Notes: generated from the letters alone by a model not told the origin. Positions 27,006 through 51,778 are shown, counted from the first letter of the stretch. The stretch is 63,753 nucleotides of DNA from a bacterium (GCA_016930435.1 JAFGGQ010000010.1:1-63753); one strand, 5' to 3'. Numbers and translations: made by a program.

Positions 27006-27263
27006 TTATTTTATTATAACAAGTTTATTATATGTTGTAAAGTTTTCTGACTTTGCGCAGATATAATATATCCCTGAGGGGAGTGCGTGTTCAGAATAAT
27101 CGGATGGTCTCCGGTGAAGGCAGGTTATTCCACTGTCAAGATAACCATCAAAGAGAATGCCCTGGAGTTTGCCCTGAATACTGTAGAGGGATAATACTAA
27201 TTTCCCGGGGCTTGATAAGGTCAACTGTATATTGATCCAGCAGTTAAGGGGATTGGGATAAAG
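27006..27263 (-). other. Degenerate T9SS type-A C-terminal sorting domain
   Basis: LYPNPLN..(85 aa)..SGIYYICAK....KLVIIK. This is weaker than the other five copies: NPL replaces NPF, and it lacks the W(D/N)G.D block. Confidence 0.5.
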
Positions 27264-27827
27264 GGAGAGTTCCCATTGCGGGATTATGCTGATGCAGTTA
27301 TCCGGGGGGATACTAACCAGATCGAAATATCTGATTCTGACCTCCTGTGCGGGGAGAAATGGTAATTCTTCAAGGCTATCCATAGGATGCCAGATCTCGA
27401 TAGGCAAACCGGGGTAGTTTGCTCCGATATATGCCTGTGGTTGCAGATCCACCCTTCCCGGGAAGGAATCCGGGTTCCATTGGGCCAGCCGGGGTTCTAT
27501 GGAATCATCGCCGCTGTGCCGTATGGTCCATTCCAGAGAATCGGCATAAGAACTTCGTATATCCCGGCTAAGAAAACTAAGTTCCGGATAAAGGGTGTCA
27601 GTCAAGGTGAAATAGGCATAGAATCCATAGGGAGATGGCCAGGTGGGGATATCGAATTCATCGTCAAAACCATCTGTCGCCATAGGATCAAGTCCCATAA
27701 AAAGATTCAGGTAATCCGTCCTGCCGCCTGAGACCAGTCTAATTTTGCCCACCCACTCCAGGGCATCAAGTGAGACAGCGAATACTACCAATATAACCAG
27801 CAAGATTATCTTAAAGTTGGTCTTCAT
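27006..27827 (-). CDS. Small secreted protein: signal peptide, one copy of the island's ~140-aa module, and a degenerate T9SS-type C-terminal domain
   Basis: I start at ATG 27827 (MKTNFKIILLVILVVFAVSL). The module is at 27324..27761 (MATDGFDDEFDIP..YAYF..SRDIR..WNPDSFP..). The C-terminus LYPNPLNCWINIQLTL..LPSGIYYICAK..KLVIIK resembles the CTD of the neighbouring genes. Confidence 0.7.
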   Translation of the reverse strand: MKTNFKIILLVILVVFAVSLDALEWVGKIRLVSGGRTDYLNLFMGLDPMATDGFDDEFDIPTWPSPYGFYAYFTLTDTLYPELSFLSRDIRSSYADSLEWTIRHSGDDSIEPRLAQWNPDSFPGRVDLQPQAYIGANYPGLPIEIWHPMDSLEELPFLPAQEVRIRYFDLVSIPPDNCISIIPQWELSLYPNPLNCWINIQLTLSSPGKLVLSLYSIQGKLQGILFDGYLDSGITCLHRRPSDYSEHALPSGIYYICAKSENFTTYNKLVIIK

Positions 27828-27855
27828 ATTTAATGGAATCCATCTCCAGAGAGGT

Positions 27856-28785
27856 TCAATGTTCAGTGACGGTGCCAACTTGGTTAAAAGTGATAGTCCG
27901 GATGATCTTATCACTTATAAATTTCCGTTTACCGGTCCGGATACTCTTCTTAAGTTCGCTAAGATTATCGTAGAATACTTTCTCACCGGTCAGGATCAGA
28001 GTATCGACGTCGTCAAATGCCGCCCAGCCGATCTGGCCCACGGGAGGCAGAAAAAGAAAATCTGCTTGCTTTATTTGCTCCTCGAACCTCTTCTGAACTG
28101 CTATACGGCTGGCACGTATTATCACCTCCATGGCAGAATTAAACTTTTTGTCCTCCCGGATCTGAGTGGGCAATCCTACAGCGATGACAAAATCGGCTCC
28201 CCGTTCCCTGAGCACAGAGATTGGAACGGGGCTTACCACTCCCCCGTCAATATAATAGCTATCGTCAATCTTGACCGGTGGAAATACTCCCGGTATGGCT
28301 GCACTGGCCAGAATGCCCTTTCTCATATTTCCCTCGCCAAATACTCTTTCCTGGCCATTTTGAGCATTAGAGGTAACCGCATAAAATGGTATCTTGAAAT
28401 CGGTGGGATCCTCGGGAATAACCATATCAATGAAATTTTTTAGAATATAGTTCTGAAGAAGGGAATCACGGGTAAGGGATTTGGTAAATATAATCTTTTC
28501 CTGAAGCCAAATTTTAGCTCCTTCCAGAGAAAAACGTCCCAGACCATTGCCCTTATGCATCAATTTTAGTACTTGATTGACAGTATTATCACTCAGATAC
28601 TTCTTCACCTCGGACTCGATCTCCTGCGGGGTTTTCCCCAAAGCAAACATAGCCCCTAATATTGCACCAACACTGGTCCCCGCAATCATGCTGATTTCTA
28701 TTTCCTCTTTTACCAAACCCTTAAGCACCCCTATATGAGCCAAACCTCTGGCTCCACCGGAACCAAGAACCAGCCCAATTTTCAT
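27856..28785 (-). CDS. Patatin-like phospholipase
   Basis: 309 aa with the oxyanion loop GLVLGSGGARG, the nucleophile elbow GTSVGA (GxSxG) and the catalytic Asp in IDGGV. A 28-nt gap separates it from the downstream module protein. Confidence 0.85.
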   Translation of the reverse strand: MKIGLVLGSGGARGLAHIGVLKGLVKEEIEISMIAGTSVGAILGAMFALGKTPQEIESEVKKYLSDNTVNQVLKLMHKGNGLGRFSLEGAKIWLQEKIIFTKSLTRDSLLQNYILKNFIDMVIPEDPTDFKIPFYAVTSNAQNGQERVFGEGNMRKGILASAAIPGVFPPVKIDDSYYIDGGVVSPVPISVLRERGADFVIAVGLPTQIREDKKFNSAMEVIIRASRIAVQKRFEEQIKQADFLFLPPVGQIGWAAFDDVDTLILTGEKVFYDNLSELKKSIRTGKRKFISDKIIRTITFNQVGTVTEH

Positions 28786-28816
28786 CCTGCTCCACTCCTT
28801 TTAATGGTGTTAATAC

Positions 28817-29182: not shown

Positions 29183-29206
29183 ATCTAATTTAGCCTTCAG
29201 CTACAG

Positions 29207-29464
29207 CTATTTAAGCATGGTCAGGCGTTTGCTGATTATCTCATTACCGGCTTTCAGGGTATAGAAGTATATGCCTGTAGAGACTTCCCGGCCGGCGGCA
29301 TCAGTACCGTCCCATTCAACTATATAGTGCCCGGCAGGCAAGGATTGCGAAAACAGTACCTTCACCTCTTTGCCCATAATATCGCAAATGGTCAGTTCTG
29401 CCCGTGTATTTTCCTTCAGGCTGAACCCGATATAAGTATTCAGGTTAAAGGGATTGGGATAGTT
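29207..29464 (-). other. T9SS type-A C-terminal sorting domain
   Basis: NYPNPFNLNTYIGFSL..ELTICDIMGKEV..YIVEWDGTDAAGREVSTGIYFYTLKAG..KRLTMLK. Confidence 0.8.
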
Positions 29465-32400
29465 TTGAGCCAGGTCGTAGTGAGTTGGCAGGGAAGCCAC
29501 ATTCAAGGGTTTAACGCCTTCCAGAACGTTAATGCCGGTCAGGTATTCGAAGATTGTACCCAATGCCATGTATTGAGTATGAGGGAACGGTCCGTCTTCA
29601 ATTGCACCCAGGTAGATAGTAGAGTGTACGGTCCGGTAGTTATCCACCTGGTAAGCTCCCATTCTGCCTGTGGCTGAATCCGGAATGAAGGTGGTATCGA
29701 AAGAGAACATGACCATATCAGCCCCATCGGGTCCGATCTCATCAATGAAGCGATCGGCGATAGTAGCGACCGGATAATCCAATTCCAGGTTATAATCAAA
29801 GAACCAATCCTGTCCTTCCAGCCACTGGACATTTCGGTCCGGGTTACCATCACTGAGGAATTCGACTCCGAACATCTGGTAAAGGTAGCGGGAGATTTGT
29901 GGGGCGTGAGTATCCCGGAAATAGTCATAACCGAAATCGGCGCCTTCCCAGTAAATCCGGCCGCCGGCATGGAGATAAGCAGCTAATTGCCGCAAGCTTT
30001 GCGTATTTATCTTGGTCTGGTCCGAATCGTATATGCCTGTACCCACGAAAACAACCAGATAATCGATAAGCCGATATTCGCTCAGGGACACATCCTGACC
30101 TGTTAACTGGTAAGGCACTTCGAAGGCTTCCAGCATTCGAACGTGTGAAGCCTCAACGCCTTCAGTGCCCCCGGAGCAGAGCCGCGCGCTATTATCGAAA
30201 TCGTAAACCAGAACCAGGGGGTCGGTACTATTAGGCCTTGGATTACCGATAGCCCAGTTGGATAAGTCGCTGTAACCCTCTGCATATTTTGCCCGAACCC
30301 AGTATGTATTAAAATCCCAGTTGTCAACATTGTGATCGATGAAACTGCGCACCCATCCGGGAACATACCCAATGCTGTCCACAGAGAATGTCCCCCGGTA
30401 TATTATATACCCTTCGAGGGTTGCTTCAGAAGATTCGGGAGCATCCCAATACATGGGAACCCTTTTCTCCAAACCATTAATAACCGTCAGGTTAAGGGGT
30501 GGATTCAGGTCTCCGGCATAAGCTATCAAAGTGAAGTCAAGTACCAGATCATCATCGAGGTAGATTATCGTATCCTGTGGAATATATCCTGGTTTGCGGA
30601 GGTATAAGTGATACTCCCCGGGCAAATTATCTAAAAAGCCGTAGTAACCATCCTCGGCAGTAATCACCGAATCAATAAAACCGTCCTCGATTCGGATCAT
30701 CGAACCCTCGAGGGTAGCCGGTTCATCTGATAAGTAGATAGTACCTGTTATATCATAGCGTTGAAAACGGAGGAATATATTCAACACTTCTTCTTCTTCA
30801 TCCAGATAGATGTTCGTATCCAGTGCTTCATATCCTTCCCGCCGGAGGGAGATCAGATAGGTTTGGTGCATTACCAGATTGGTATAGAGGAATTCTCCGA
30901 AAATATTGGTATAAAATGTATCTACTCCATTCATCAATACCATAGTTCCTTCCAGAGGATCTTCGCCCTCCAGTGTAACCAACCCATATATGCTTCCACG
31001 CTGAGCGATCAAGGTGGTATTTACAACTAAATCATCGTTGATGACTGCTATGGTAGTATCATAGGGGAAAAATCCCAGGTGGTAAAAGCTCATAGGATAT
31101 TCACCGGGAACGATGTTATAGAAAATATAGTAACCGTCTTCATTGGTATAAGCAGTATCTCCATTCAGGGTAACCATAGTCCCTTCGTAGTGTTCTTCGG
31201 GGAGTCCATCCAGGACGACCGTTCCGGAGATTGTATAAGCTAATGGGTTCAGCTCGAAATCGTGATACACATCGGAAAGGATGGCGATATTCAGGGAAAC
31301 GGTTTCGTAGCCATTGCGGGAGACGTAGAACTGGTATATTCCGGAGGGGATATCACAGAGTTCGTAAAAACCGGTGGAATCGGTTGTGGCGCTGATCTCC
31401 AGTTCCGGGCAGCTTATGACGCTTCCGTAGAGATCATCGGAGCCATCCGAGAGGTTAACGAATCCTGATAAGCACCATCGGTCGGGCCCGGTCAGCCAGA
31501 AGTGTATTATAGCCCTTCCTATACCCACGAAATCAAGGCTGGAATTACGCCGCATATTCAACCATTCGGAGGGGGGGCTGATAAAATCAGTAAATCCTAT
31601 ATAGAAATTACCTTCCTCGGGGAGTAATTCGGGATACCAGGTCAGCCAGCTATGGGCTTCTTCATCATAGGGGAAATACAGCATATATGCTTCCCAGTAG
31701 AGTGATTCTGCCAGGGAGTAGCGAATGTCCTTCAGGAGGTTGGGGAAATCGGGATCATCGATCACAAAATATGTATATGGATTATCGCCGGGGGGCATTG
31801 GGGGTGAAAGCATATCCAGCCCTGCGTCGAATAGCTCGGTACCCACTTCATCAGCGCCAAAGACCAGTTCAAAGCGTGTGGGCTCGGTGAAGGGATCCGG
31901 GGTTGTCCATACGAACAAGGTGTCCATCCATTCGGGTGCAACAAAGTAGCCGGTAGTGAAGCGCAAGGTGGACGTTGCCCAGTTGGGCGGGGATGCAAGG
32001 TCTAAAACATCCAGCACGACCTCGATAGCGCTGATCTGTGGAAAATCGACTGGCGGATCATAATAAACCCAAATATAATCTTCATATTCTTCGATTATCA
32101 ATGCCGAGGAAACATCCGTGCTGTTCACGTGCATCACTATGCTTTCAAGGTCCACACCGGTTTCGTAGTCGGTTATAAAGACTGATATATTTGCGGATAC
32201 GGAGATCCCCATAGCGCCATTTTCAGGATTCCAGTTGTAGATCACGGGCGGGTTGGAGTCCACGACAGCCCGGATCGATTTGATCCAGATAACTTCTCCG
32301 ATCAGAACCCCTGTCAGGGAGTTAACAGCGGACATATCGAACCAGGTTTCGGGAATATCTGCGGGATATGCGGAGCCTATCATAAATGTATAACCGGTGG

Positions 32401-33529
32401 GCAGCATTTCCGGGTTCCAGTTAACGCCATTATAAGTAAATCCGCTGCCTATGTTAATTTTCCAGTAATCGAGGTTTAAAGCTGAATTATGAATATCCCG
32501 GAAAAGCATTGTAAAATAGGAATATTCCGGATCCGAAATAGGGAAATAAGCGTAAGGCATACCCGGTGGCGGAGGGGGCAAGGGTGTATCAAATCCATAA
32601 TCGAAACCATCAGATGCGGCGGGGTCCCCTCCATAGGAAATGGGGAAGAAAGCAGTATCTGCACCACCCATGGTTGACCAGACGGTTAGCGGCACCTCCC
32701 ATTCGGTAACATAAGAAGGTTCATCCAGGGTTTTGAAGGTAATCGCATGGTCAAGTGTATTAGGAGGATAAGCCAAATCGTTCACCACTACCCTGACTTC
32801 CACCCATGAGTTCAAGGGATAAGGTTCGTCAGGGCTGTAATAAAGGGAATATTCACCGGAACTCTTGGCAATCGAGAGGTCTTCCGTTACTTCCTCCCCT
32901 TCCACGAAGAAGTGCAGACTCTCAATGTTCACTCCGGTCTCATCGTCCATTATAGTAACTGAAATAGGGGTATTGGGGTAATTATCTTCAGAACCGGGGA
33001 GAGGGTCCCATTCGCTTACATAGGGAGGCGAGGTCCCTTCGATACCGTCGGGGCTATATTGGATCTCAAGCATTTGAGCGGGGGCGAACTCAAGTGAACT
33101 AATAGACCTCATATCCTGCCAAACAGTCGGATACTCGCCTGGGTAGAAAACCGCTATTCGGAAATCGCCCCGGGGCAACAAATCTGGATTCCAGTACAAG
33201 ACCTGGGGAGCAACCCCTCTCATTAGCATAACCTGCCATGTATAGAGCTCCTCAGAATCTCCCCGAATATCAGTAGTAAGCATACTGACATAAGGATTCA
33301 TGGGATCTGATATGGGAAAGTATGCATAGGGATTTATAGGAGGAGGAATAGGTAAATTCACATCAAGACCCATATCATAAGAATCGGTAGCATAGGGTGA
33401 GGTTCCCAGGATCAAGGGCAAACTAAGTCCACCGGAAACCGTCTGCAGATCAACTCGCCAAGCTTCGGCAAAAGCCAAAACAGGAAGTAAGAATATTATT
33501 ATGATACAAATAGTTAATTCTTTACGCAT
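29207..33529 (-). CDS. Giant secreted multidomain surface protein (1440 aa) with T9SS sorting domain
   Basis: The signal peptide is MRKELTICIIIIFLLPVLAFA. There are three copies of the ~140-aa module (33056..33463, 32276..32707, 31496..31936), the first two each followed by an SbsA-type Ig-like domain (PPYVSEWDP.., PPVIYNWNP..). Next come four CarboxypepD_reg-like beta-sandwich repeats (30521..31474) and an FN3-like segment. The protein ends with an alpha/beta module (29525..30223) and the CTD. Confidence 0.85.
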   Translation of the reverse strand: MRKELTICIIIIFLLPVLAFAEAWRVDLQTVSGGLSLPLILGTSPYATDSYDMGLDVNLPIPPPINPYAYFPISDPMNPYVSMLTTDIRGDSEELYTWQVMLMRGVAPQVLYWNPDLLPRGDFRIAVFYPGEYPTVWQDMRSISSLEFAPAQMLEIQYSPDGIEGTSPPYVSEWDPLPGSEDNYPNTPISVTIMDDETGVNIESLHFFVEGEEVTEDLSIAKSSGEYSLYYSPDEPYPLNSWVEVRVVVNDLAYPPNTLDHAITFKTLDEPSYVTEWEVPLTVWSTMGGADTAFFPISYGGDPAASDGFDYGFDTPLPPPPPGMPYAYFPISDPEYSYFTMLFRDIHNSALNLDYWKINIGSGFTYNGVNWNPEMLPTGYTFMIGSAYPADIPETWFDMSAVNSLTGVLIGEVIWIKSIRAVVDSNPPVIYNWNPENGAMGISVSANISVFITDYETGVDLESIVMHVNSTDVSSALIIEEYEDYIWVYYDPPVDFPQISAIEVVLDVLDLASPPNWATSTLRFTTGYFVAPEWMDTLFVWTTPDPFTEPTRFELVFGADEVGTELFDAGLDMLSPPMPPGDNPYTYFVIDDPDFPNLLKDIRYSLAESLYWEAYMLYFPYDEEAHSWLTWYPELLPEEGNFYIGFTDFISPPSEWLNMRRNSSLDFVGIGRAIIHFWLTGPDRWCLSGFVNLSDGSDDLYGSVISCPELEISATTDSTGFYELCDIPSGIYQFYVSRNGYETVSLNIAILSDVYHDFELNPLAYTISGTVVLDGLPEEHYEGTMVTLNGDTAYTNEDGYYIFYNIVPGEYPMSFYHLGFFPYDTTIAVINDDLVVNTTLIAQRGSIYGLVTLEGEDPLEGTMVLMNGVDTFYTNIFGEFLYTNLVMHQTYLISLRREGYEALDTNIYLDEEEEVLNIFLRFQRYDITGTIYLSDEPATLEGSMIRIEDGFIDSVITAEDGYYGFLDNLPGEYHLYLRKPGYIPQDTIIYLDDDLVLDFTLIAYAGDLNPPLNLTVINGLEKRVPMYWDAPESSEATLEGYIIYRGTFSVDSIGYVPGWVRSFIDHNVDNWDFNTYWVRAKYAEGYSDLSNWAIGNPRPNSTDPLVLVYDFDNSARLCSGGTEGVEASHVRMLEAFEVPYQLTGQDVSLSEYRLIDYLVVFVGTGIYDSDQTKINTQSLRQLAAYLHAGGRIYWEGADFGYDYFRDTHAPQISRYLYQMFGVEFLSDGNPDRNVQWLEGQDWFFDYNLELDYPVATIADRFIDEIGPDGADMVMFSFDTTFIPDSATGRMGAYQVDNYRTVHSTIYLGAIEDGPFPHTQYMALGTIFEYLTGINVLEGVKPLNVASLPTHYDLAQNYPNPFNLNTYIGFSLKENTRAELTICDIMGKEVKVLFSQSLPAGHYIVEWDGTDAAGREVSTGIYFYTLKAGNEIISKRLTMLK

Positions 33530-33556
33530 TCTTAAACCTCCTGTAAGGATTTAAGG

Positions 33557-33808
33557 TTATTTTATAAAAAGCATATTCTTAATAATGCTCTTGGTTCCAA
33601 ATTGAAGCCTGTAGAAGTATATTCCGGATGGGGAATCGAGCTTTGAAGCATCCCAGTTTAAGCGGTATTCACCAGCTTGCAGCTGCTGATTATCGATAAG
33701 TACATCCATCTCGGTACCCATGACATTATGAATGGTGAAGCGTACTTCTCCGCTTTGAGGCAAGCTAAAGCTAAAAGAGGTAGTAGGGTTAAAGGGATTG
33801 GGATAGTT
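33557..33808 (-). other. T9SS type-A C-terminal sorting domain
   Basis: NYPNPFNPTTSFSFSLPQSGEVRFTIHNVMGTEM..YRLNWDAS..SGIYFYRLQFG..KNMLFIK. Confidence 0.8.
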
Positions 33809-35971
33809 CTGCTGCAGACCCAATTGCGCCGGGACAGTAGGCTTGTATGAGGTTATCCCTATAGTATAGCAGAAACCGGAATCTGCATTTGAGAATTCAC
33901 TTACACCGTAGTTATAAACCGCATTTACCCGGTAATAGTACCAGGTATCCACTTCGATATCCTCATCAAGGTATTCGGATGCGGATGCCGGATTCTCAGC
34001 GATAAGAGCAGCTTCGGAGGGTTCTTCAAAGTAATGGAGGCAGCGGTAAAGTTCGTAACCCAGTAGCTCCAGTTCCAATGAGGCTTTATCCTCGTATGGC
34101 GACCTCCAGGTTACCCTTATCACCTCTTCCAGGGTATCCGATGCTTCAAGGAATGACGGTGGATCAAAGTGCATTTCTTCAAGTTCGAAATCGATCATTG
34201 TATCAGAAACCAGACCTAAAACCACGGTATCCGGAAAGAATCCCTCATGGCTGGCGATAACAGTGATCTCTTCATTAATAACCTCATCGAACATGTAGTC
34301 GCCATAATAATCGGTAGTATCCATTCCTACACCCAATATCTCCACAATGCTTCCCGATAGATCACCTGTAACTCCCATAAGATATACGTTTCCCCAAACA
34401 CTGCTTGAAGTATCGTCAAGCTCAAACAGATAGAAATTTACGGTAGTATCATCGGTCAGGTTTATAATTGCGGTATCAGGATAATAACCGTCGTGGTAAG
34501 CGATAAGGGTATATTCTCCGAAGAGCACTTCAATGAAGGAGTAAAAACCGGCGATATCGGTGGTATCGACACCCACACCAACCAATTCAACAACTGTACC
34601 CGATAAATCGTCGAATATACCTTCAAGGCCGACAATACCGGTTATATTTGCGGATGTATCCACGATTATACTTTCAAGAGAGAAATTCAGCACGGTATCG
34701 CTGACCAGGATAAAGATCATGGTATCCGGGAGATAGCTATCATGTGATACAATTATCACCTGTGGTCCAAATGGGACATCAATAAAACTGTAATTGCCAT
34801 AATAATCGGTTGTATCGGTATCGAATCCGTATATCTCAACGATGCTATTAGAAAGGTCACCGGATGCACCTTCAAGCAGCACCGTTCCGGAAACATCGCC
34901 CAGTGAATCGATCAGCGGATACAGGGTAACGTTCCAGGTTGTATCTCCGATAATGCTCATGGTCGTTTCCGCGAAATCATATCCATCATGAGCAGCGTGA
35001 ATATTATAAGTCATTTCTTCCAGTCCTGTTACCTCATAGTAACCGCTTGCATTTGTGATTGCGCTTCCGTCTTCGAGCAAAATGACCAGCGAGTTTTCGA
35101 AACTTGCTGCCCCGTCCAGGTAAACATATCCAGAAAGAGTAAACCCGGTGGAGTCCGTAGCGGTTGTGAACGTAATGGTATCGGCCATGTGATTATCATT
35201 AAGGTCATCGGCATTCAAGATAATTGTTATATCAGTATTTGTAGGAAGCTCGATCATTGATGGCAGCGATACATGAAAGCCTCCGGTTATTGGCGTAATA
35301 TTAAGAAGGCTGGGGGGCACAGGCCCTACGCCGGGAACATACATTATAATGGAAGTTTCATCGACTCCGACACCCGCATCGAGCACATCAACATCTATGT
35401 CAGTATCGACCGGGACATCCGTCTCTCCATCATAAGGATTCCAGTTCATAGTATAAGGCGGATCTGTATCCTCGACGGGACCGGAGTAGCGGATCATCGC
35501 ATATTGGGCAGGCAGGAAATTAAATATATTAGTTGTCCTCATATCCGTAGCAGTTTCCCAGTTTATACTTCCTGAAGGGTATGCTGAACCTACCAGAAAC
35601 TCCCCTGTTGATGGGAGCCCGGTATTATCCCAAACCAGGTTAGGATAAGGGATACTTGGAACGCCGCCGCAAATTTCAACCTTCCAATAATTCTCAGGTT
35701 CACCAGCAGCCTGGATATCGGTATAAAGCTTATCAATCAAGGGATTCAGGGGATCATCAAGTTCGAAATAAGCATCCAGTACCATCGGGCAAGGTGGATG
35801 TATAATATCCAAAGGATCATAACCATTCAGGCCCATCGGGTTTACCCCAAAGGTCAGGAAAATAGTGTCTCCCTCGGATACATTCACCCCTAAAGGTAAT
35901 GACCATTGGGGATATGTAACAGAAAACATTAATGTAACTATTAGTCCAGCCCAACACAATTTTTTTAACAT
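33557..35971 (-). CDS. Secreted multidomain surface protein (~804 aa) with T9SS sorting domain
   Basis: I start at ATG 35971 behind AAAGGAGAG (the tracked start is TTG 35998). It contains one module (35483..35908), an Ig-like domain (DPPYTMNWNP), four tandem ~82-aa CarboxypepD_reg-like repeats (34169..35152), an FN3-like segment and the CTD. Only 27 nt separate it from the next gene. Confidence 0.85.
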   Translation of the reverse strand: MLKKLCWAGLIVTLMFSVTYPQWSLPLGVNVSEGDTIFLTFGVNPMGLNGYDPLDIIHPPCPMVLDAYFELDDPLNPLIDKLYTDIQAAGEPENYWKVEICGGVPSIPYPNLVWDNTGLPSTGEFLVGSAYPSGSINWETATDMRTTNIFNFLPAQYAMIRYSGPVEDTDPPYTMNWNPYDGETDVPVDTDIDVDVLDAGVGVDETSIIMYVPGVGPVPPSLLNITPITGGFHVSLPSMIELPTNTDITIILNADDLNDNHMADTITFTTATDSTGFTLSGYVYLDGAASFENSLVILLEDGSAITNASGYYEVTGLEEMTYNIHAAHDGYDFAETTMSIIGDTTWNVTLYPLIDSLGDVSGTVLLEGASGDLSNSIVEIYGFDTDTTDYYGNYSFIDVPFGPQVIIVSHDSYLPDTMIFILVSDTVLNFSLESIIVDTSANITGIVGLEGIFDDLSGTVVELVGVGVDTTDIAGFYSFIEVLFGEYTLIAYHDGYYPDTAIINLTDDTTVNFYLFELDDTSSSVWGNVYLMGVTGDLSGSIVEILGVGMDTTDYYGDYMFDEVINEEITVIASHEGFFPDTVVLGLVSDTMIDFELEEMHFDPPSFLEASDTLEEVIRVTWRSPYEDKASLELELLGYELYRCLHYFEEPSEAALIAENPASASEYLDEDIEVDTWYYYRVNAVYNYGVSEFSNADSGFCYTIGITSYKPTVPAQLGLQQNYPNPFNPTTSFSFSLPQSGEVRFTIHNVMGTEMDVLIDNQQLQAGEYRLNWDASKLDSPSGIYFYRLQFGTKSIIKNMLFIK

Positions 35972-36127: not shown

Positions 36128-36152
36128 TTTATATCCGCATTGAATTTGGATT

Positions 36153-40965: not shown

Positions 40966-40999
40966 GGGCTATAGGAGGGGCAATCCCCTCCCATAGCCC
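40966..40999 (-). terminator. Rho-independent terminator after the 2971-aa gene
   Basis: A 15-bp stem GGGCTATAGGAGGGG / CCCCTCCCATAGCCC (14 of 15 paired) with a 4-nt loop, 14 nt past the stop at 41014. It is followed on the minus strand by T7. Confidence 0.85.
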
Positions 41000-44200: not shown

Positions 44201-47200
44201 ATCTCGGTCCATTCTTCATCGTGCCAGTAGAGATACCAGACCACACTATCGGTGATAGCGATGTCATAGTTGAAGCTGGAGATATCATAATTTCTGGGAT
44301 CGATAGTATCGCAAGCCCAGACACAGAGTTCGCCGCTTCTACCGGTTATCACCAGGCGATCGTCATAAGGCGGTGAAGCCCAAGGGTCGGTGTGAGCCCT
44401 ATCGGAGCTATCTACCGCAGGCCAGCAGATGTCAGGATAGTAGTAATTGGTTTCGATACGGAACGGGAAGTCGCGGGTAGTCATAATGTTGGCGGCATTG
44501 TCGTCGAAGCCGGACACCCTTAGGGTAGCCACTCCGTCCATCACTCCATCGCCAGCAATTATCATATAACCGATCCATTCCCGGTCGGTATTCCAACCGT
44601 TATCCAGGAACATGGCTTCAGCTTCTTCACTGACGGAGCCCATTTCTCCAAGGCCCTCATCGGGGAACATTCTTGGGGCCATAATTCCGTGGTCATAGTT
44701 AACATATTGATCCGATAAAGGATAGAATCCCGCATGGGTCTCGATAGGTATTACCGGGAACCAGTGGGTCCAGCCTTCGGGCCGGAAACGAACGATATAT
44801 CCGTAGGAGGCATCAGCAGCCCGCATATCCATATTATCGTCAAACCAGAGTCTAACGTAAATGGTGCAGACATCGCCGAAGTTGTATATACCTATTAAGG
44901 AATCCTGTTGAGCGTGGCCCGGATCCCAAGGCAGCCAGCAGTAGCGAGGATCCCAGTCGGTAAATTCATCGACTACCACACAACTGGGTTCTATGGTCAT
45001 CCCACCAAGAGAATCGTAGGTGGTATCGTAGGTACATTCCTCATACTGATAGGTGCTGAAGGCGAGGCCCTTAACTTCAGGCAGGCCGTTATCCAGGATC
45101 ATCTGGGGGGAATACAGATAGCATTGATTACCCAGACGGTCTTGAATAATTGCCTCGGCATGAATGGTATCGGCGATGAAGATAGTATCTTCTTCGAGGG
45201 TATTCAGGACGGCAGTTGTGCCTTCAACTGAATATTCCAGGCCGGTGTACATTGTGATGGGCCCAACGGCGTGATGACGGCCAGGGATCTCTTCAGGAGC
45301 GCAGTTGTAGATGGAAAGATGCTCGTTGGTGTAGAGATAATAGGTGCCGTAGTTGTAGGTCAGCATGAGTTCGGCATTTGCCCAGGTACCCATTTCATAA
45401 ACCAGCCAGTCGGAACCCTGGACCACTGAGGGCAGCGGCCATACGGTGTTCCAACCCATAGGAGTAGTCGTATTGCCGGAGCAACCCACGTCCGCATCCC
45501 TGATATTCTCCAGCCTTACTCTCACGGCATTGTTGTCAGCATGTCTCTCGATGCAGTTAACCTCTTCATAGCCGTAGAGTCCTTCCAGAGTGGCAAACCT
45601 TCCGGTAGGAGGCAGCATATCAATGATGTAGTCCCATCTGAACTCTTTATATGTAGTATAAGGAGTATTGAACTGATTGGGGGTTTTTACATGAATACCC
45701 AGAGTAACTACCAGGCTGTCACGGTGCTGATAACCAATAATGGTATCTATGACCATGGTTTCGCCGATCCAGGTAGTATCGTAATCCCTGTAGGAATCCA
45801 GCCACTGATGCATCTGATCCAAAGGCCCAATGCGGAAGTAGCCGTAGTCATAGCAGCGGTATCTATCGGGGTAGTATTCCAGGAAGCATGGGGAACAGTG
45901 GCAATTGTAATAATCGGTGTAATCCCAGACCAGGTCGCCCATCGCATCCCACAGTTCGAGGTTCACGAAAGGAGCTCTTTCGGTCAGGGTATCATGGAAG
46001 GTATCTTCTACGCATTCCAGGATGAAGCTGTCCACGCAGGTTACCATGGCGACCCACATGAAATTGAGGTCTTTGGCAAACTTATCCACATAATCATCCC
46101 TTGAGTGGATCATCGAGATCCCCTCTAATTCGGGATAAGGAAGAGCATAGATGTAATCGTACATACCATGCAGATCCTGAGGATAGCCATAAGGCCTTGC
46201 CATAGCCCAGTCTGTATAGGCTTCATCATTGAACCAATCCACGGACTGTATATAGGTTTCACCCTGAATCTGGATAGTATCCACATAGACAAGAGCCCAG
46301 TTGGGGTTTACATAGTCCATATAAATATGTCTCCAGTAGTCGTAGCAGGATGAATCCCAGTGGAGGAGTGAATCGGGTCCGATAAAGTAATTATGAATAT
46401 CCCTACGCCAGCTTGTGGTAGGCGTATTGGCATAAGTATCGTTCAGGTGATACCATCGATAGCCATAACCGAATGGGTCTTCAGTAGCAGGGTACCAAGG
46501 CACATTAACCCCGTCGCCAGCCCAGATTTCGACCTGCACCACATCTCCGGGTTGGAAGAAATGGCATTCGGTATTCATGCTATCCCAGCAGTTCAGGCTC
46601 AGTCTGGCTTCCCTGGTGGGATCCAGTCCTAATGGTCCGCCATAATCAAGGGTAGCATAACGGTATTGTTCTCTGTCAACGTGCTCTCCCAGCATCCAGC
46701 TGCCGTAAGTAACATTAGTCCAGCAGATAGTATCGGGAACGGCATTGTAGGGATTACCGCCATGGAGGCTATCCAGGAAGATCAGCCGGATATCCGCGGC
46801 TTCAACCCCAGCTACCCATTCGTCGCACCAGATAGCTCCGACCCTATCGCTGATATCCTTGAGGTCGAAATACCATGGGTCACAGCATGGGCCACCGGGT
46901 TGAGCGTCGATCAGGACAGGGGCATGTATATCGATGAAGAAACTCCAACGTGCCACCTGTCTTTGAATGGGATAGAGAAAATCGGGATCGCGGGTATCGA
47001 TAGCGTGGTTACGGCCGGGAACGAAAACGTCCACCAGCCAGCTTTCGTCTTCACATTCGATCTCGAAATTATCGGGGTGGCAATCGTTGTAAGCGTTATC
47101 CCAAACATAAACGGTAACGCAGATCTTATCACCAGCCCGGAATCTCATGTTGGAGGGGAATCTTCGATACGGATCGAAGGTTACCCTGACGCCCCATTCT

Positions 47201-49929
47201 CCTTCAACCTTTTCCAGATCCATCCAGTCATCGCCGGGTCCGGTCCAGATAAAGTTACGGCCTTCCCATGGCCGAGAGGGGTAATCAATATAGCTGGGAT
47301 GCCAGGTGCCATCACAACCCCGAACCTTGATATTCATAACCAGCCGGTCATCGGGATCGCTGCCGGTATAAACACCAGCTACGCAGTTATAAAGGTTAGC
47401 AAAATTGCTGTCCACATTAGGGCAATCCAACTGGTCGTAGATATCCACGGTGATAACCTGGAAGGAATCGCTTGAGACCCATTGTCTGGGCGGATAGAAT
47501 GTAGTATCCGGAGCAGTAGGGCCCTTCAGGTCGATTCTAACGATACCCAGGGTATCCGGGCTGTACTGGGTATAGCCGGGACAGGCCAGGGGGCCGGATT
47601 CCAGGGTAACGTGGTTATCGCGGTCATTGTCGGTTCCATAGTTAGGATCCATACCACCGGTTGCGCACCAGGAATCGGAGGGTACCAAATCGGCACGAGG
47701 GGGTAATACTCCATAATATGATTCGTCGGATTGACCGTAATCAGGATCGTCAAATAATGAAGTCAATATTACATAAACTACATCACCGGATTGTAGTTCC
47801 CAGTCGGAACCGAAATCCGGATCATAGAGGAAGAGCTCTTCGAAGTTGACCCACATGGTTGAGCGGTAGTAACATTCACCGTAGCATTCATCGATATAAA
47901 CGCCGCCGGTGATGATATCGTCCTCATCGACGTAGAGAGTTCTGGAGAAAGTAGATTCACAGCAGGCATAGATATCGAACTGCACTATGAAATCGCGTTT
48001 GTTTATACCGGCACCGTCAACGTGTCCGGTGTAGTATAGTCCATGATTTGTGCGGTCGTGAACGCGGTCGTAATCATCATAGACTTCGATTTCAAGGGTA
48101 GGCAGCGAATCAGCGAGCCAGCGGTAATAAACCAGCTCTCTTTCGATGGTCTCACTACGACGGTTGATACCGGAGAATTCTTCGGTGTCGTTGTCATGGC
48201 CATCGGCTTCGGGGCATATCAATTCGGCATTGGGGCCGGAGAGGTCAACACGGAACTGCCAGGTAGTATCTGCATACCATCCCTCTAAAGTGGAATAAGA
48301 GGACCAGGGCCAGTCGGCGTGAGTAGTCCGGTTCCAGGTATTAATGGTCACCCGAACATTAGCGCCATCGATAAAGCAGTTGAGGAAATCATCAGAATCG
48401 CCAGCCATCTGCATTCCGTTTTCAATCACGAAGGAGTCTGTGCAGCAGTGTTCCAGGTTTGTGCAACCTAATGGATAAACCATACATTCCGGCCATGTTC
48501 CCCAACCTACCGGTTCAGTCCAGTTAGTGGGGGAATTCCAGTATCGGTATTTCCATTCCCATCCTGCACTGGGACCGCTGTTGAATTGATCGTAAGGAAG
48601 GGTTGGTTTATTCCGGAAGTATATCCTGGTTTGCAGCCAGGGGTCGTGATATTCAGGGAAGAGAGGGGGGTTAATATATTCAATAATAACCATAACTGAT
48701 TCCACGCAGGTCTGCACATCTCTGATTTTGAAGGAGATGGGCTGAGTGGAGTCAGCGGTAAAGATCATGTCATCGGGGTCATCTTGACAATCGGTATAAG
48801 GACCGTTGGAGAGTACCACGTTTCTGGGATAAAGTTCCCTGATCTGGGGCTTTAATTTATCCCAACCGATAATTTCTTCGGAGCGTGCCCACCGGCCCCT
48901 GTCGGGATCAGAACCCCAGCCAGGTAGGGTGGTATCGGGAATGTCAAAGTTTCGAAGAATGTAGCAGTCGGTATGGGCATCGGCCATAGAAACGGGAGCC
49001 ACTTCAGCGGGGTTAATTTTATAGACAATAAGGTGTTCTTTGGCAACGATGTTAACGTAAAATGTATCCAGGTTGGACATACCTTCGATAACGTATCCAT
49101 CGGTCATACAAGGGACATTAAACCAAAAGTTGTCTCCGATGTCGATCCGCGAGTGGCAACCTTCCGCTCTCAGGATCATCCAGTATCTCAGGAAGGGTAA
49201 TCCATAAGAGGGAATATCCAGCATGTCGCGGTCCATAAGATAACTTTCGAACAGTATGGTAGCCTGCCACCATTTCCATGTGGGATAAGGGTTCGGAATT
49301 CCAACGGGGGCAGAAACTTCGTACCACTGATCGTCTGCATAGATAGTTGTGCAAATTTCGGTTGCGGGATTGCAGAGGGTTACCATATCACGATAAGCTT
49401 CGGGATGGTCACGAAGGTCAATATCGTCAAAAGTATTGACATTGGAGCCAGCAGCCATTCCCTGCTCTTCGTAAAACTGTAGGCCCATCATGGTATGAAT
49501 GTCCGGACCACCCACGTAAGCGGAATCAGGATACCGAGCCTGGGCCCGGGCACGAGATATCGGAAGCAAGTCGTGGTTAGGATCGAAATCCGGGCTACCG
49601 TAAAGGGTTACAGTAACACCGATCCAGTAGTTATCAGAAGCTGTAGAAAGCAGGTCGAATCTCATGAAAGCAGCATCCGAATCGAGTGGGTTAAAATCGT
49701 CAGTGGGGTCCACATACCGGAGATACCTGGAGCTACGAGGAGCACCCCAGGAATCAACTCTGGAGTAATCCGTTGTGTACCAGCCAGGGATTTCATCTCC
49801 GTACACGGACGGGGAATAGGGAGGCATTAGGTTGAAGGTGTTTGCGTACTGCCAAGTAGCAAACGCACTTGTACCCATTAATACCAGACAAGCCAGAATC
49901 AGCATGGATACAATCGTTTTCTTTCCCAT
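41014..49929 (-). CDS. Giant secreted protein (2971 aa) of unknown fold with T9SS sorting domain
   Basis: I start at ATG 49929 behind AAAGGAGAG (the tracked start is 50010). The signal peptide is MGKKTIVSMLILACLVLMGTSAFA. This is a single uninterrupted 8.9-kb ORF, strongly enriched in Asp, Tyr, Trp, Pro and Cys. It ends in a canonical CTD. I see no catalytic motif and no family outside the C-terminal ~300 aa. Confidence 0.85.
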   Translation of the reverse strand: MGKKTIVSMLILACLVLMGTSAFATWQYANTFNLMPPYSPSVYGDEIPGWYTTDYSRVDSWGAPRSSRYLRYVDPTDDFNPLDSDAAFMRFDLLSTASDNYWIGVTVTLYGSPDFDPNHDLLPISRARAQARYPDSAYVGGPDIHTMMGLQFYEEQGMAAGSNVNTFDDIDLRDHPEAYRDMVTLCNPATEICTTIYADDQWYEVSAPVGIPNPYPTWKWWQATILFESYLMDRDMLDIPSYGLPFLRYWMILRAEGCHSRIDIGDNFWFNVPCMTDGYVIEGMSNLDTFYVNIVAKEHLIVYKINPAEVAPVSMADAHTDCYILRNFDIPDTTLPGWGSDPDRGRWARSEEIIGWDKLKPQIRELYPRNVVLSNGPYTDCQDDPDDMIFTADSTQPISFKIRDVQTCVESVMVIIEYINPPLFPEYHDPWLQTRIYFRNKPTLPYDQFNSGPSAGWEWKYRYWNSPTNWTEPVGWGTWPECMVYPLGCTNLEHCCTDSFVIENGMQMAGDSDDFLNCFIDGANVRVTINTWNRTTHADWPWSSYSTLEGWYADTTWQFRVDLSGPNAELICPEADGHDNDTEEFSGINRRSETIERELVYYRWLADSLPTLEIEVYDDYDRVHDRTNHGLYYTGHVDGAGINKRDFIVQFDIYACCESTFSRTLYVDEDDIITGGVYIDECYGECYYRSTMWVNFEELFLYDPDFGSDWELQSGDVVYVILTSLFDDPDYGQSDESYYGVLPPRADLVPSDSWCATGGMDPNYGTDNDRDNHVTLESGPLACPGYTQYSPDTLGIVRIDLKGPTAPDTTFYPPRQWVSSDSFQVITVDIYDQLDCPNVDSNFANLYNCVAGVYTGSDPDDRLVMNIKVRGCDGTWHPSYIDYPSRPWEGRNFIWTGPGDDWMDLEKVEGEWGVRVTFDPYRRFPSNMRFRAGDKICVTVYVWDNAYNDCHPDNFEIECEDESWLVDVFVPGRNHAIDTRDPDFLYPIQRQVARWSFFIDIHAPVLIDAQPGGPCCDPWYFDLKDISDRVGAIWCDEWVAGVEAADIRLIFLDSLHGGNPYNAVPDTICWTNVTYGSWMLGEHVDREQYRYATLDYGGPLGLDPTREARLSLNCWDSMNTECHFFQPGDVVQVEIWAGDGVNVPWYPATEDPFGYGYRWYHLNDTYANTPTTSWRRDIHNYFIGPDSLLHWDSSCYDYWRHIYMDYVNPNWALVYVDTIQIQGETYIQSVDWFNDEAYTDWAMARPYGYPQDLHGMYDYIYALPYPELEGISMIHSRDDYVDKFAKDLNFMWVAMVTCVDSFILECVEDTFHDTLTERAPFVNLELWDAMGDLVWDYTDYYNCHCSPCFLEYYPDRYRCYDYGYFRIGPLDQMHQWLDSYRDYDTTWIGETMVIDTIIGYQHRDSLVVTLGIHVKTPNQFNTPYTTYKEFRWDYIIDMLPPTGRFATLEGLYGYEEVNCIERHADNNAVRVRLENIRDADVGCSGNTTTPMGWNTVWPLPSVVQGSDWLVYEMGTWANAELMLTYNYGTYYLYTNEHLSIYNCAPEEIPGRHHAVGPITMYTGLEYSVEGTTAVLNTLEEDTIFIADTIHAEAIIQDRLGNQCYLYSPQMILDNGLPEVKGLAFSTYQYEECTYDTTYDSLGGMTIEPSCVVVDEFTDWDPRYCWLPWDPGHAQQDSLIGIYNFGDVCTIYVRLWFDDNMDMRAADASYGYIVRFRPEGWTHWFPVIPIETHAGFYPLSDQYVNYDHGIMAPRMFPDEGLGEMGSVSEEAEAMFLDNGWNTDREWIGYMIIAGDGVMDGVATLRVSGFDDNAANIMTTRDFPFRIETNYYYPDICWPAVDSSDRAHTDPWASPPYDDRLVITGRSGELCVWACDTIDPRNYDISSFNYDIAITDSVVWYLYWHDEEWTEIPASAVSAFHYVIDNPRESCQILPAAVYDVLHQYNTQEKYLTVEFRVYSRFYHEEYLDDILLNVMVDNESPCGQVDFDTIAGGDIPPGIGLTIIPKSTDEVRIVLSGDGVSDVDYVLYYYLDLLTGDHYSIYPEGAHLSSGYCSYVPVGAYPSNPYYDPVNDVIIYDWDWTTNGLTPGLYSIKTRGYDLINNQYGECTSEGDCYMTDYETYYQTFSTVMESVLVPYEVLFARGDDFYDATLSTFGDLYPWDEDMCLPDWPGWVNGELDGIVDAFPYLERFPITTFSNPDYTSGPEDPLLHPYVETGGYPGDSLYVMFMDVGADSIRMIIEDEFGGNISGSNLRIELLFTPDDLVMNPCDEMYYYVYNWIVDDMDNRYDGPVRVTVTLYFWNEFYSEHTITNHVSYILLDTYDPYYVTALARTEVGDPLMDCRHDDLPDEKIWVTNADEIDINVYWHETVFDQEESSEGFVDYDPTGRNWSHLRLTIDGQPNPGFNTDDPNDALETRLWHSRVFDGTLPAMGAWIPPAFFDDISYIYTWTVANDVRGNGLTKIKVKGRDVAGNILDYDEAMSSISEGKWVLVDVTYPVVLDEELIYATEVSFSADAGAIYDNFIDAGFYDPVGGGYVYVDLDTNGVFVQRVWVNEDGSITPVVVGFTDGQTVHMTICDLAGNCIEANVVVAPHLTCCVYEFCPGWNFISLPRMLEDATIEANFPADVDIYSMDASGLFVGPLDRDTELDYRLGYVAFSPDYATVTVCGRCVEEWAIPIVAGWNLVGSLCEPIPFVTPDTDPAGIIEPDNVFWYDACIDAYIQVEELTPCAAHLVLAAAPGTLYVPARGRVVHTIMKSAAVKPLWNSPISIEGKGFAKDLTIGVGEGATEGYDRGADRISLPAMPDRPDVSLDQSLLHSVKAPDNVITWDLNVRGEFNLVANDLPEGYTFFLQRDDQRNDLSTPVAITSGTYKLVAVKAIIPDSYTLAQNHPNPFNATTTISFGLPEDANVTLEVYNVLGDKVVTLLNGEETAGFKTVMWNGRDAADNSVATGIYFYQLKTDKFSSIKKMILMK

Positions 49930-50092
49930 AACGCTACTCTCCTTTCGGTTATAGGTTTTATTTTTTCTCCACAAATTCTCGAGGAAACAAAAGAATCTAA
50001 CACTACCCAACTTAACCTCCTTGTAAGTTAAAACTTATATAATCAACCATTATTTCAATTCCGCGTTTAGATACCATTATTAATATAGCGTC

Positions 50093-50121
50093 AATATATT
50101 TATTACACTTATAGTTGTCAA
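50093..50121 (-). promoter_or_regulatory. Candidate sigma70-type promoter for the giant gene
   Basis: The minus strand reads TTGACA (50121..50116), a 17-nt spacer, then TATATT (50098..50093). This implies a ~160-nt AT-rich 5' leader. Confidence 0.4.
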
Positions 50122-50221
50122 GTGTTTTCTGACGCTGCGTAAAATTTCTAACATCAAAAAATTGCTAAATCAAATTTGAACCAAAATTAAATGCCACAGG
50201 TAAAATGTCAACAAAAAATTA

Positions 50222-51778
50222 TTAATATTCTAAAAAAAGATTATCGGATGTTGGCCAAAGCCTTTCAAATCTGAGGTTACAAACGATTTTCACCTCACCG
50301 GAAGTGTTCTTTTCAGAACCCTGGTGAAGGTAATTCCGGATGTCAAACCAGTCCAGACAAAGTGCGATGTCGAGCCCATTCCCAAACCATTTACGAATAT
50401 TTAATGAAAGTCTTTGGCTCGTTTCTACAGTGCCACTGGGAAAATCTTCCTTGTAGTGGTTTTCGGGTTGCAGCCATGGTTCGGACCAGGATTCTTCAAT
50501 AGAGCCCTCCCCCTTTCGGCAGACCTGGTAATTTAATTCCATAGGAAGAGTGGGGCTTATCCAGTATCTGCAAGCAACCCGATAGACCTCGACATCATTT
50601 CCCAAGGGGTAGCCCATGGGCTGGCCGGAGTAGGTCCAGCGGTTCCACACAAACCGCTGATTATAAGTCCAGTTGGACACCCTGTCATATTGTGCTTTCA
50701 GGGTCAAGGGACGGGAAAAAAGGGCGAGTCCGCTTTTCAGCCCTAACACCAGTCCATATTCGGTTGGCTCTTCGTCTTCGGGCGAGCTGCTCTCTATTTG
50801 AAAATCATCAATCATCAACTCTCCGTAGAACACAGTGCTCCGGTATTTTACACCCCAATCCAAACTGAGGATAGTATTGTCATTTGTATTGGCATTAAGC
50901 TGTTCGGCATGATACCAGAAGAGTGGCATTACATAAAGGGGCTCCAGTCCCCTTTGGGGCCCACCGTAAAGGACGAGTTCTGAAAGGCCGATGGAAAAAA
51001 GATTTTGGTAATCGAATCTGATCCGATGTCCGGCGATAAATCTCCGGGCTGAGCTTCCACCGTGTATCTCCGCTAATGAATCTGATAGCTGAATTTGATC
51101 CAGGAATCCGGTGAATGCCATGAACCGGAATTGTTTGGTTCCGGCCTCTGCGCTGATCAAGGGGAAAGGGTCGGACCAGGGATTCAGGGTCAGGCCGGAT
51201 GCCCAGCCCATATAATCCTTGCCGCATTTCAGCCGGAAATATGGGTTGAGGGTAGGTTGATAGACCATCATCACCTGTTGTGAACCTCCCGCAAAACCAT
51301 TCCATTTTTTACCCCGATATTCTGGTTCGTCATAAAGCTCCTGGTCAGCAAAATAACTGGTATAGAGGCTTAAACGCCGATCTTCCCAGCCAGTACCCAA
51401 CTTAACACTGCTATAGAGTTCCCGGGAATCCCGGTTTACCCAGCCCCTGCTCTTCAGTTCGGCTTCCACTCCAAAATGCCGCTGAGAAAAATGCGTATCA
51501 TCGATACCCAGATAATCAAGAATTTGGCTCCGGAAAAACGAGTACCTGGTGTCCTGATAATCCGTTGTAGCTTTAAGAATCTCACGCAATTCATTTTTAC
51601 TGAGGATGGTTTCACCCGGATAAAGACCCGAAGCATGAGGAGAAAGTGCAAATTCATCAAACAGGAGATAAAGAGGGTCTTCAGGTGAAAAAGGGATCCT
51701 TTCCCAGGAATGCAGATTACAATAAATGAATAGTATATATATATATATTATTAATATAAATCTTCTTCTATAAAGCAT
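50222..51778 (-). CDS. Outer-membrane beta-barrel protein, Wzi (capsule-assembly)-like
   Basis: 518 aa with the signal peptide MLYRRRFILIIYIYILFIY. A helical N-terminal segment is followed by many amphipathic beta-strand-like stretches, and the C-terminal residue is aromatic (..NLFLEY). The size and N-terminal pattern remind me of Pfam Caps_assemb_Wzi, but this is unverified. Confidence 0.45.
   Translation of the reverse strand: MLYRRRFILIIYIYILFIYCNLHSWERIPFSPEDPLYLLFDEFALSPHASGLYPGETILSKNELREILKATTDYQDTRYSFFRSQILDYLGIDDTHFSQRHFGVEAELKSRGWVNRDSRELYSSVKLGTGWEDRRLSLYTSYFADQELYDEPEYRGKKWNGFAGGSQQVMMVYQPTLNPYFRLKCGKDYMGWASGLTLNPWSDPFPLISAEAGTKQFRFMAFTGFLDQIQLSDSLAEIHGGSSARRFIAGHRIRFDYQNLFSIGLSELVLYGGPQRGLEPLYVMPLFWYHAEQLNANTNDNTILSLDWGVKYRSTVFYGELMIDDFQIESSSPEDEEPTEYGLVLGLKSGLALFSRPLTLKAQYDRVSNWTYNQRFVWNRWTYSGQPMGYPLGNDVEVYRVACRYWISPTLPMELNYQVCRKGEGSIEESWSEPWLQPENHYKEDFPSGTVETSQRLSLNIRKWFGNGLDIALCLDWFDIRNYLHQGSEKNTSGEVKIVCNLRFERLWPTSDNLFLEY
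51734..51748 (-). repeat. (TA)7 dinucleotide tract inside the signal-peptide coding region of the Wzi-like gene
   Basis: The direct read is tatatatatatatat, which encodes ..IYIYI.. . Confidence 0.9.

Follow-up and report, generated by a model that had tools for sequence, protein, structure and literature searches.

What is the function of the very large secreted proteins encoded on the minus strand between positions 27006 and 51778 of the bacterial contig JAFGGQ010000010.1 (assembly GCA_016930435.1), the 63,753 nucleotides (nt) of which are referred to here as the window? A preliminary description of this DNA had read them as a dedicated cell-surface coat or adhesion system rather than a set of enzymes. 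This is still the most reasonable reading, given their type IX secretion system (T9SS) type-A C-terminal sorting domains (CTDs), their acidic composition and the lack of catalytic domains, although its second half, "rather than enzymes", is something that we infer, in view of the giant protein and the alpha/beta folds described below. More specifically, there would seem to be an even chance that the proteins form a highly expressed, T9SS-exported and glycan-anchored coat on the outer surface of the cell. At its centre would stand the products of three genes, which lie with their signals as follows:

50222 to 51778, minus strand: Wzi-family outer-membrane protein (518 amino acids, aa), assigned from a match to PF14052
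50093 to 50128, minus strand: predicted promoter of the giant, AAA-N3-CTTGACA-17 nt-TATATT
41014 to 49929, minus strand: giant putative T9SS cargo (2971 aa), isoelectric point (pI) 4.17, 68 Cys, type-A CTD
40966 to 40999, minus strand: predicted intrinsic terminator of the giant, a 15-base-pair (bp) stem with 10 G-C pairs, then a T-run
36153 to 40871, minus strand: conserved partner of ~1580 aa (1572 aa here), the ortholog of which follows the giant in related loci

Relatives were sought in one genome per GTDB species and 12 loci were found. The order Wzi-like gene, giant, partner is kept in every locus as far as the contig reaches, with the Wzi-like gene directly upstream of the giant in 11 of the 11 related loci that reach that far. 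Because the order of the trio is fixed across loci, the giant and the 1572-aa protein are taken to be a pair of long standing that has been passed down vertically, and neither is a recent paralog of the other. Among 5.8 billion proteins, no more than 8 other clusters contain full-length relatives of the giant and only some 5 contain relatives of the 1572-aa protein. The orthologs of the giant (12 species) are 36–64% identical to it over residues 1–2971 with few indels, and those of the partner have ~1545–1596 aa with three copies of a ~140-aa module, an alpha/beta module and a CTD, the exception being locus L016 (1329 aa, two modules). One of the 12 loci comes from a record entitled "bacterium UBP14_UBA6098" and one from "Candidatus Zixiibacteriota"; the rest, from Zodletone spring, Guaymas, Auka and other assemblies, have only "bacterium" as their title. 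The lineage would thus be an uncultured candidate phylum, which we place only tentatively with UBP14 or Zixiibacteriota.

The giant is likely to form a transcription unit of its own, since its promoter, leader, ribosome-binding site and 3′ hairpin are conserved. Between the Wzi-like gene and the giant lies a spacer that is long in every locus (292–530 bp), and when aligned the spacers contain AAAAAGGnCTTGACA, exactly 17 nt, a TAnnnT box (mostly TATTTT) and then GAAAGGAG before the ATG. This TTGACA-17-TAnnnT promoter is conserved in the window and 11 loci, that is in every locus that includes the spacer, with leaders of 110–310 nt; in the window it is an 11-of-12 match at 50121–50093 with a leader of ~157 nt. 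In a search of both strands of 705 kb, the pattern AAA-N3-CTTGAC[AT]-N15-19-TAnnnT is present exactly once in each of the 12 sequences (window plus 11 loci), every time inside this spacer, and at no other place. In the window the GAAAGGAG ribosome-binding site is 6–7 nt upstream of the ATG at 49929 and, together with the alignment of orthologs, it favours this start over a longer one beginning with TTG. At the other end of the gene a GC-rich hairpin of 12–19 bp is located 10–25 nt past the stop codon in the window and in each of the 11 other loci where the 3′ end is covered, its sequence not being conserved. Strong promoters, leaders that are both long and structured, and stable mRNAs are hallmarks of genes for surface-layer (S-layer) proteins, which can amount to 10–15% of cell protein (PMC10221546). 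The near-consensus signals of the giant point, indirectly, to high expression, and the promoter, leader and terminator provide handles for metatranscriptomics and metaproteomics. At the 5′ terminus of the leader, in the first ~25 nt after the predicted +1, a hairpin of the form CCUGCCG-loop-CGGCxGG is seen in L011, L012, L013, L014, L016 and L019, with differing loops and compensatory changes in the stem; it is present neither in the window nor in L009 and L010. Such a hairpin may stabilise the mRNA.

Five T9SS-sorted proteins had been noted before and a sixth paralog is described below. All six begin, on inspection, with a signal peptide comprising a basic n-region, a hydrophobic core of 12–18 residues and an AxA-like site, in agreement, as far as the five are concerned, with the preliminary description, which had also named a failure of the CTDs to match hidden Markov models (HMMs) of T9SS sorting domains as a result that would speak against it. 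The five CTDs all pass the type-A model TIGR04183, the cut-off of which is 23 bits, with scores of 27.3, 34.4, 31.9, 32.6 and 36.7. The CTD of the smallest protein, previously described as degenerate, has the lowest of these five scores, yet lies above the cut-off. On PF18962 the scores are 26.2–28.8 against a cut-off of 27, which four of the five pass and the 1440-aa protein misses at 26.2. The CTD of the sixth paralog matches a CTD model built from the window at 3.8e-33, and all six proteins pass the type-A cut-off; many additional CTD proteins are encoded in the related loci. The six proteins have a pI of 4.05–4.6, a Lys plus Arg content of 2.4–7.0% and an enrichment in Trp and Tyr, compared with a pI of 6.9 and 11.3% Lys plus Arg for the cytoplasmic proteins of the window. 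Pfam and NCBIfam scans gave no catalytic family for any of them, as had been proposed, and in terms of motifs there is no HExxH, no CxxCH and only incidental GxSxG. Full-length homology to characterised adhesin or enzyme families, the other result that had been named as damaging, was not found in searches of Pfam, NCBIfam and PDB sequences.

In the giant, ~2700 residues without repeats or annotation precede a truncated copy of the ~140-aa module at about residues 2762–2855 (DNA 41365–41646; hhalign probability 97.9%) and the type-A CTD at residues 2889–2971 (DNA 41017–41265). It is regarded as essentially non-repetitive because an all-against-all hhalign comparison of 160-aa slices gave a single weak internal pair (79% probability). 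The five proteins had been described as mosaics of a shared set of modules; this is true of the smaller proteins and of the 1572-aa protein but not of the giant, which has only the CTD and the truncated module copy in common with them, besides two additional weak Big_5-like immunoglobulin-like (Ig) signals from a profile comparison. By BLASTP the CTD alone is shared between the giant and its paralogs in the window. Nine giant orthologs, run singly against Pfam with E up to 1, matched CTD families only, and a profile of the orthologs run against all PDB sequences gave FlgD-like matches to the CTD and nothing elsewhere. Calculated per 60 residues, the identity among orthologs varies from 34 to 78%, with the maximum at residues 1681–1740. 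Invariant cysteines are clustered as CHCxPC...C (residues 1343–1359; window 45886–45903) and CCxYExC (residues 2594–2600; window 42130–42150), and these clusters could be disulfide knots or metal sites. A secreted, uniformly conserved protein with no recognised domain over 2700 residues would be a good target for structure prediction or cryo-electron microscopy.

The 518-aa protein encoded upstream of the giant matches PF14052 at 45.6 bits against a cut-off of 30.1 (residues 183–491 to positions 84–389 of the 392 in the model), and its orthologs give the same match. In related genomes the gene is always preceded by an RmlD-like gene, in most loci also by genes for GT4, Wza, Wzz, Wzy and Wzx, and in one by KdtA and LpxK. 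In the window the corresponding region reads:

51890 to 55812, minus strand: predicted surface-glycan genes, namely RmlD, a hexapeptide sugar acetyltransferase, a Gfo/Idh/MocA oxidoreductase and a polyprenyl glycosylphosphotransferase

The Gfo/Idh/MocA enzyme, the best match of which is UDP-GlcNAc 3-dehydrogenase, below the cut-off, adjoins the hexapeptide N-acetyltransferase (52822–54368, minus strand), and no aminotransferase is present near the two. The pair presumably recalls the WbpB and WbpD steps towards the di-N-acetylated uronic acid of the anionic lipopolysaccharide (A-LPS) to which T9SS cargo is anchored in P. gingivalis, a likeness that we take as resemblance only. No report pairing Wzi with T9SS cargo was found in the literature. 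The strict adjacency of the Wzi-like gene and the giant suggests a link between capsule-type glycan assembly and the anchoring of T9SS cargo.

Taken with what is known of the T9SS in Bacteroidota, from which the following steps are drawn, these features would be consistent with a coat assembled as follows. Sec would carry the proteins across the inner membrane and folding would take place in the periplasm, after which the T9SS would export them by means of their CTDs. A PorU-type sortase would then remove the CTD and join the new C-terminus to an anionic glycolipid, which the products of the neighbouring glycan genes and the Wzi-like barrel would make or organise. The giant would be the abundant main component. 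In its partner, CarboxypepD_reg, FN3 and alpha/beta domains would make up a stalk, with three module-Ig units borne at the N-terminus, away from the cell; the N-terminal module is placed at the distal tip because T9SS cargo is presumed to be anchored by its C-terminus. The smaller paralogs would be extra or alternative components, specific to the lineage, that show the same N-terminal module. Support for a coat also comes from the repeat types, Big_5-like Ig and CarboxypepD_reg, since these match those of S-layer proteins.

A precedent is the T9SS-dependent two-protein S-layer of Tannerella forsythia, TfsA/TfsB (PMC4175972). Its two large adjacent genes, type-A CTDs, T9SS-dependent export, tie to a surface glycan and richness in Ig-like domains have their counterparts in what is predicted here from the genes. 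Among the differences, no sequence homology to TfsA and TfsB was detected, the predicted main subunit here has no repeats and, at 2971 aa, about double the size, the locus is linked to a Wzi-family barrel, and the organism belongs to an uncultured candidate phylum outside Bacteroidota. Wzi, which serves as outer-membrane lectin in the group 1 capsules of E. coli and Klebsiella, resembles the barrel here in being encoded by the last gene of a Wza/Wzz/Wzy/Wzx-type locus and in the PF14052 match, which is above the gathering score; the protein here differs in having a longer N-terminal region outside the Pfam match (~180 residues), in being always followed by T9SS giant genes and in giving no PDB match. 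With the Kuenenia S-layer glycoprotein Kustd1514 (NF052345) the proteins share one type of repeat, CarboxypepD_reg, and they are not members of that family.

Several observations weigh against a coat. At 330 kDa and without repeats the giant is unlike known S-layer subunits; the ~2700 residues to which no fold is assigned could possibly harbour an enzymatic core; and 23 Cys are invariant across 9 of its orthologs, which is unusual for S-layer proteins. These would be expected to be poor in Cys, of which the giant has 68 and the partner 29. No full-length homology to a characterised S-layer family was detected, the match to NF052345 scoring 29 bits against a cut-off of 1400. Codon likeness to ribosomal-protein genes is uninformative, with overlapping leave-one-out scores for ribosomal and other genes (−0.007 versus −0.012). 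The Wzi assignment is drawn from one Pfam profile, and no Wzi chain was matched in PDB sequences at E up to 1 by phmmer or with a 12-sequence profile; the solved E. coli Wzi should be contained in that library. Genes of the T9SS machinery (sprA/sov, porK/L/M/N, porU, porV) were found neither in the 64-kb window nor in the ±10-kb flanks of related loci. Several phyla of the Fibrobacteres–Chlorobi–Bacteroidetes (FCB) group other than Bacteroidota are thought to carry T9SS genes (PMC11285876). Literature searches returned no paper connecting the T9SS with Zixibacteria, and UBP14 was found solely as the name of a phylum.

The shared modules, proposed earlier from inspection, proved to be real. HMMs built on window sequences located 9 full modules of ~141 aa (independent E-values 1e-45 to 1e-53), 7 Big_5-like Ig modules, the Big_5 matches of which are below threshold in Pfam, 14 CarboxypepD_reg repeats and 3 alpha/beta modules. 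Over ~80 residues the CarboxypepD_reg repeats match locally the Kustd1514 model NF052345 (E 1e-7 to 1e-4). The proteins that carry the modules are arranged thus, from N- to C-terminus:

27006 to 27827, minus strand: minimal protein of 273 aa; signal peptide, one module (24–168), CTD (189–273)
29207 to 33529, minus strand: lineage-specific paralog of 1440 aa; (module-Ig) twice, module, 4 CarboxypepD_reg, FN3-like, alpha/beta (1104–1327), T9SS CTD
33557 to 35971, minus strand: lineage-specific paralog of 804 aa; module, Ig, 4 CarboxypepD_reg, FN3, CTD, without the alpha/beta module
58833 to 61169, plus strand: sixth paralog, of 778 aa; module, Ig, 2 CarboxypepD_reg, alpha/beta (448–670), CTD
The 1572-aa partner, located above: signal peptide, module, Ig, Ig, module, Ig, module, 4 CarboxypepD_reg, FN3-like, alpha/beta (1244–1464), CTD (1489–1572)

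The ~140-aa module is predicted by AlphaFold2, from an alignment of 21 sequences, to be all-beta, with a predicted local distance difference test score (pLDDT) of 91.6 and a predicted template modelling (TM) score of 0.85. No analogue was obtained from the PDB with Foldseek (best E 0.11, TM 0.21 or lower), there were no matches to PDB sequences or profiles, and Pfam and NCBIfam contain no model that covers it; in BFVD two predicted viral proteins, unannotated or poorly annotated, were the only matches (TM 0.58–0.60). When 1.84 billion representatives were searched exhaustively with HMMER, 1741 proteins matched with E no higher than 1e-3, and 404 with E no higher than 1e-10. Among the 146 best matches the module begins by residue 45, directly behind the signal peptide, in 106 (73%), and 109 (75%) match the CTD model. 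The module represents an undescribed domain family that is, among these matches, mostly N-terminal in T9SS cargo. Of these 146 proteins 31 have 320 aa or fewer, and 16 of the 31 match the CTD model built from the window. Because short module-CTD proteins recur in this way elsewhere, the 273-aa protein is considered a recurrent minimal architecture, not a decayed remnant. In other proteins the module is accompanied by subtilase (P0078), beta-helix (P0127), cohesin, dockerin, cadherin-like and C-type lectin domains. A cohesin identity for the module itself was rejected: the hhalign probability against the cohesin regions of P0078 and P0107 is 0.2% and no cohesin was among the Foldseek matches in the PDB. 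A word-indexed search with a 27-sequence alignment of the module had returned only the 273-aa protein of the window itself, a failure of sensitivity when set against the 1741 proteins from exhaustive HMMER; the apparent rarity given by word-indexed searches is not to be trusted for short divergent domains.

Such proteins could alternatively be adhesins, forming individual long fibrils with N-terminal modules that bind particles, polysaccharides or cells and with paralogs that diversify the specificity. The build of the modular proteins is that of a stalk and tip, N-terminal module-Ig units being followed by CarboxypepD_reg and FN3; the cohesin, dockerin, cadherin-like, C-type lectin and beta-helix companions of the module are typical of binding and scaffolding proteins; and the number of paralogs varies among lineages. 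The giant, however, is non-repetitive, uniformly conserved and has no variable tip, and each related locus has the giant and its partner once, as a pair fixed in position. Bulk structural expression is what the promoter, leader and terminator suggest, and no ligand-binding fold was identified, the module having no analogue in the PDB. An adhesin or fibril system is thus rather unlikely, while being the best placed of the alternatives.

The alpha/beta module bears on whether the proteins might instead be secreted enzymes tethered by the T9SS, for example degrading polymers or modifying glycans, with unrecognised catalytic domains in the giant, in the alpha/beta module or in both. In 7 aligned alpha/beta modules the invariant residues are D16, D18, N19, E100, G101, Y108, D166, D170, S202 and Y205. 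None of them is Cys or His, as would be needed for a Cys-His(-Glu) triad. The AlphaFold2 model is poor, with a mean pLDDT of 49, residues 8–120 reaching 51–86 with a beta-alpha-beta pattern; its weak Foldseek neighbours are the ThuA-like protein 4pxy (E 0.013), GatD and DJ-1/PfpI (E 0.013 or worse), and searches against PDB sequences and profiles gave no matches. Our best guess, from this model, is a fold like that of class I glutamine amidotransferases or ThuA, resembled by the first half of the module and lacking the catalytic triad. The invariant acidic cluster could be a binding site or a non-canonical catalytic site.

In favour of enzymes it may be said that many T9SS cargoes are hydrolases, that relatives of the module occur in the subtilase P0078 and the beta-helix protein P0127, that eight of the invariant alpha/beta residues (D16, D18, N19, E100, D166, D170, S202 and Y205) lie in a module with an amidotransferase-like first half, and that the giant has a 78%-identical core (1681–1740) and invariant Cys clusters. 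Against this, searches at E up to 1 gave the 9 giant orthologs no Pfam, NCBIfam or PDB sequence match outside the CTD, invariant Cys and His are both lacking from the alpha/beta module, the low-confidence model of which has no structural neighbour better than E 0.01, and no catalytic motif is present. Enzymes of this kind are accordingly quite improbable.

The location of the gene for a giant T9SS cargo beside that for an outer-membrane barrel also brings to mind SprB and RemA of Flavobacterium johnsoniae, giant T9SS-exported surface proteins encoded beside an outer-membrane barrel needed for their handling, and the giant could in principle be a mobile gliding adhesin that the T9SS and the gliding apparatus propel along the cell, the barrel acting like PorP/SprF. 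The Pfam family CHU_C, a type-B-like CTD family, does match the giant marginally (29.7 bits against a cut-off of 27). SprB, however, has a type-B CTD, is highly repetitive and is paired with a PorP/SprF barrel; the best CTD model for the giant is type A (TIGR04183, 36.7 bits), no other sorting-domain model of NCBIfam being listed at E up to 0.01, repeats are absent from the giant, the neighbouring barrel is of the Wzi family and no gld genes are present in the window or flanks, all of which makes a protein of the SprB type very unlikely. It would be just as surprising if the proteins were not T9SS cargo at all and the C-terminal domain were a FlgD-Ig-like beta-sandwich of some other use in a lineage with no T9SS, since, although the Pfam family FlgD_ig scores as high as Por_Secre_tail on the CTDs, the domain stands at the extreme C-terminus of six signal-peptide proteins with a PNPFN, GxYFY, K-x3-K pattern, and both the curated type-A cut-off and the many CTD proteins of related loci speak for sorting.

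Returning to the coat, T9SS-sorted surface proteins and T9SS-dependent S-layers are already known and the locus is hence not a new category. What is new is the fixed trio of Wzi-like protein, giant and partner, a 330-kDa component that is non-repetitive and without recognised domains, two domain families absent from Pfam and NCBIfam, and a pairing of cargo and barrel of which no report was found. It is possible, if somewhat doubtful, that these amount to a new kind of T9SS-dependent envelope, with a main subunit of 330 kDa, a Wzi-family barrel as dock or glycan organiser and a distal beta-sandwich module that extends beyond the lineage. Present understanding of the T9SS is based almost wholly on Bacteroidota, and the locus offers a defined, conserved set of cargo in an uncultured phylum; of the two new domain families, that of the module is widespread and has no solved analogue.

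The proteins other than the giant and its partner have a different history. Expansion by duplication and domain shuffling, suggested previously for the whole set, fits the 273-, 804-, 1440- and 778-aa proteins, which are probably later products of these processes, but not the giant or the 1572-aa protein. Extra paralogs are present only in the window, its closest relative L001/L008, L007/L010 and L018. The 804-aa protein has a counterpart of 984 aa in L001 only, and the 1440-aa protein one of 1438 aa in L001. In at least eight loci (L003, L004, L006, L011–L014 and L016) the partner is followed by a conserved block encoding a PatA_N-domain protein (~390 aa), a ~125-aa open reading frame (ORF), a histidine-kinase-like ATPase and Usp, mostly also with a T9SS-CTD protein of ~320 aa; in the window the expanded paralogs occupy the place of this block.

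Two further features complete the layout of this part of the window:

27856 to 28785, minus strand: patatin-like phospholipase gene (Pfam 5.7e-35; RssA-like in NCBIfam, below the cut-off)
36130 to 36098, minus strand: predicted terminator after the 1572-aa partner

The first of these modifies the picture of five consecutive minus-strand genes given in the preliminary description: the ORFs and their coordinates were confirmed, but the gene for the 273-aa protein is separated from that for the 1440-aa protein by the patatin-like gene. The end of the patatin-like gene and the 273-aa gene are 28 bp apart, and because of this short gap the two are probably co-transcribed, as are, with a gap of 27 bp, the 804-aa and 1440-aa genes. 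No patatin-like gene is found at the equivalent place in the closest relative, L001. The estimate of about 21 kb of coding sequence, or one third of the window, agrees with the computed 21,195 bp (33.2%). Two further genes had gone undescribed: the Wzi-family gene, despite lying within the range that was noted, and the sixth paralog, which is outside that range, ~9 kb upstream and on the opposite strand, with hisS, an aromatic amino-acid lyase and a GH3 gene as its neighbours.

A scan of the window for tRNA genes was empty, in line with the earlier statement that there is none at the edges, and an Rfam scan of the window also gave no matches. Housekeeping genes had been placed on both flanks. 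They are present downstream (yceD, fabH/D/G and a ribosomal operon), but upstream are the surface-glycan genes; judged by this gene content, the locus is the downstream end of a surface-glycan locus and not an island between housekeeping blocks. Elsewhere in the window, ribosomal protein L17 (12452–13234, minus strand) has 260 aa with a long C-terminal extension and partly matches the NCBIfam "L17 sunset domain variant", at 133 bits, below the cut-off of 280.

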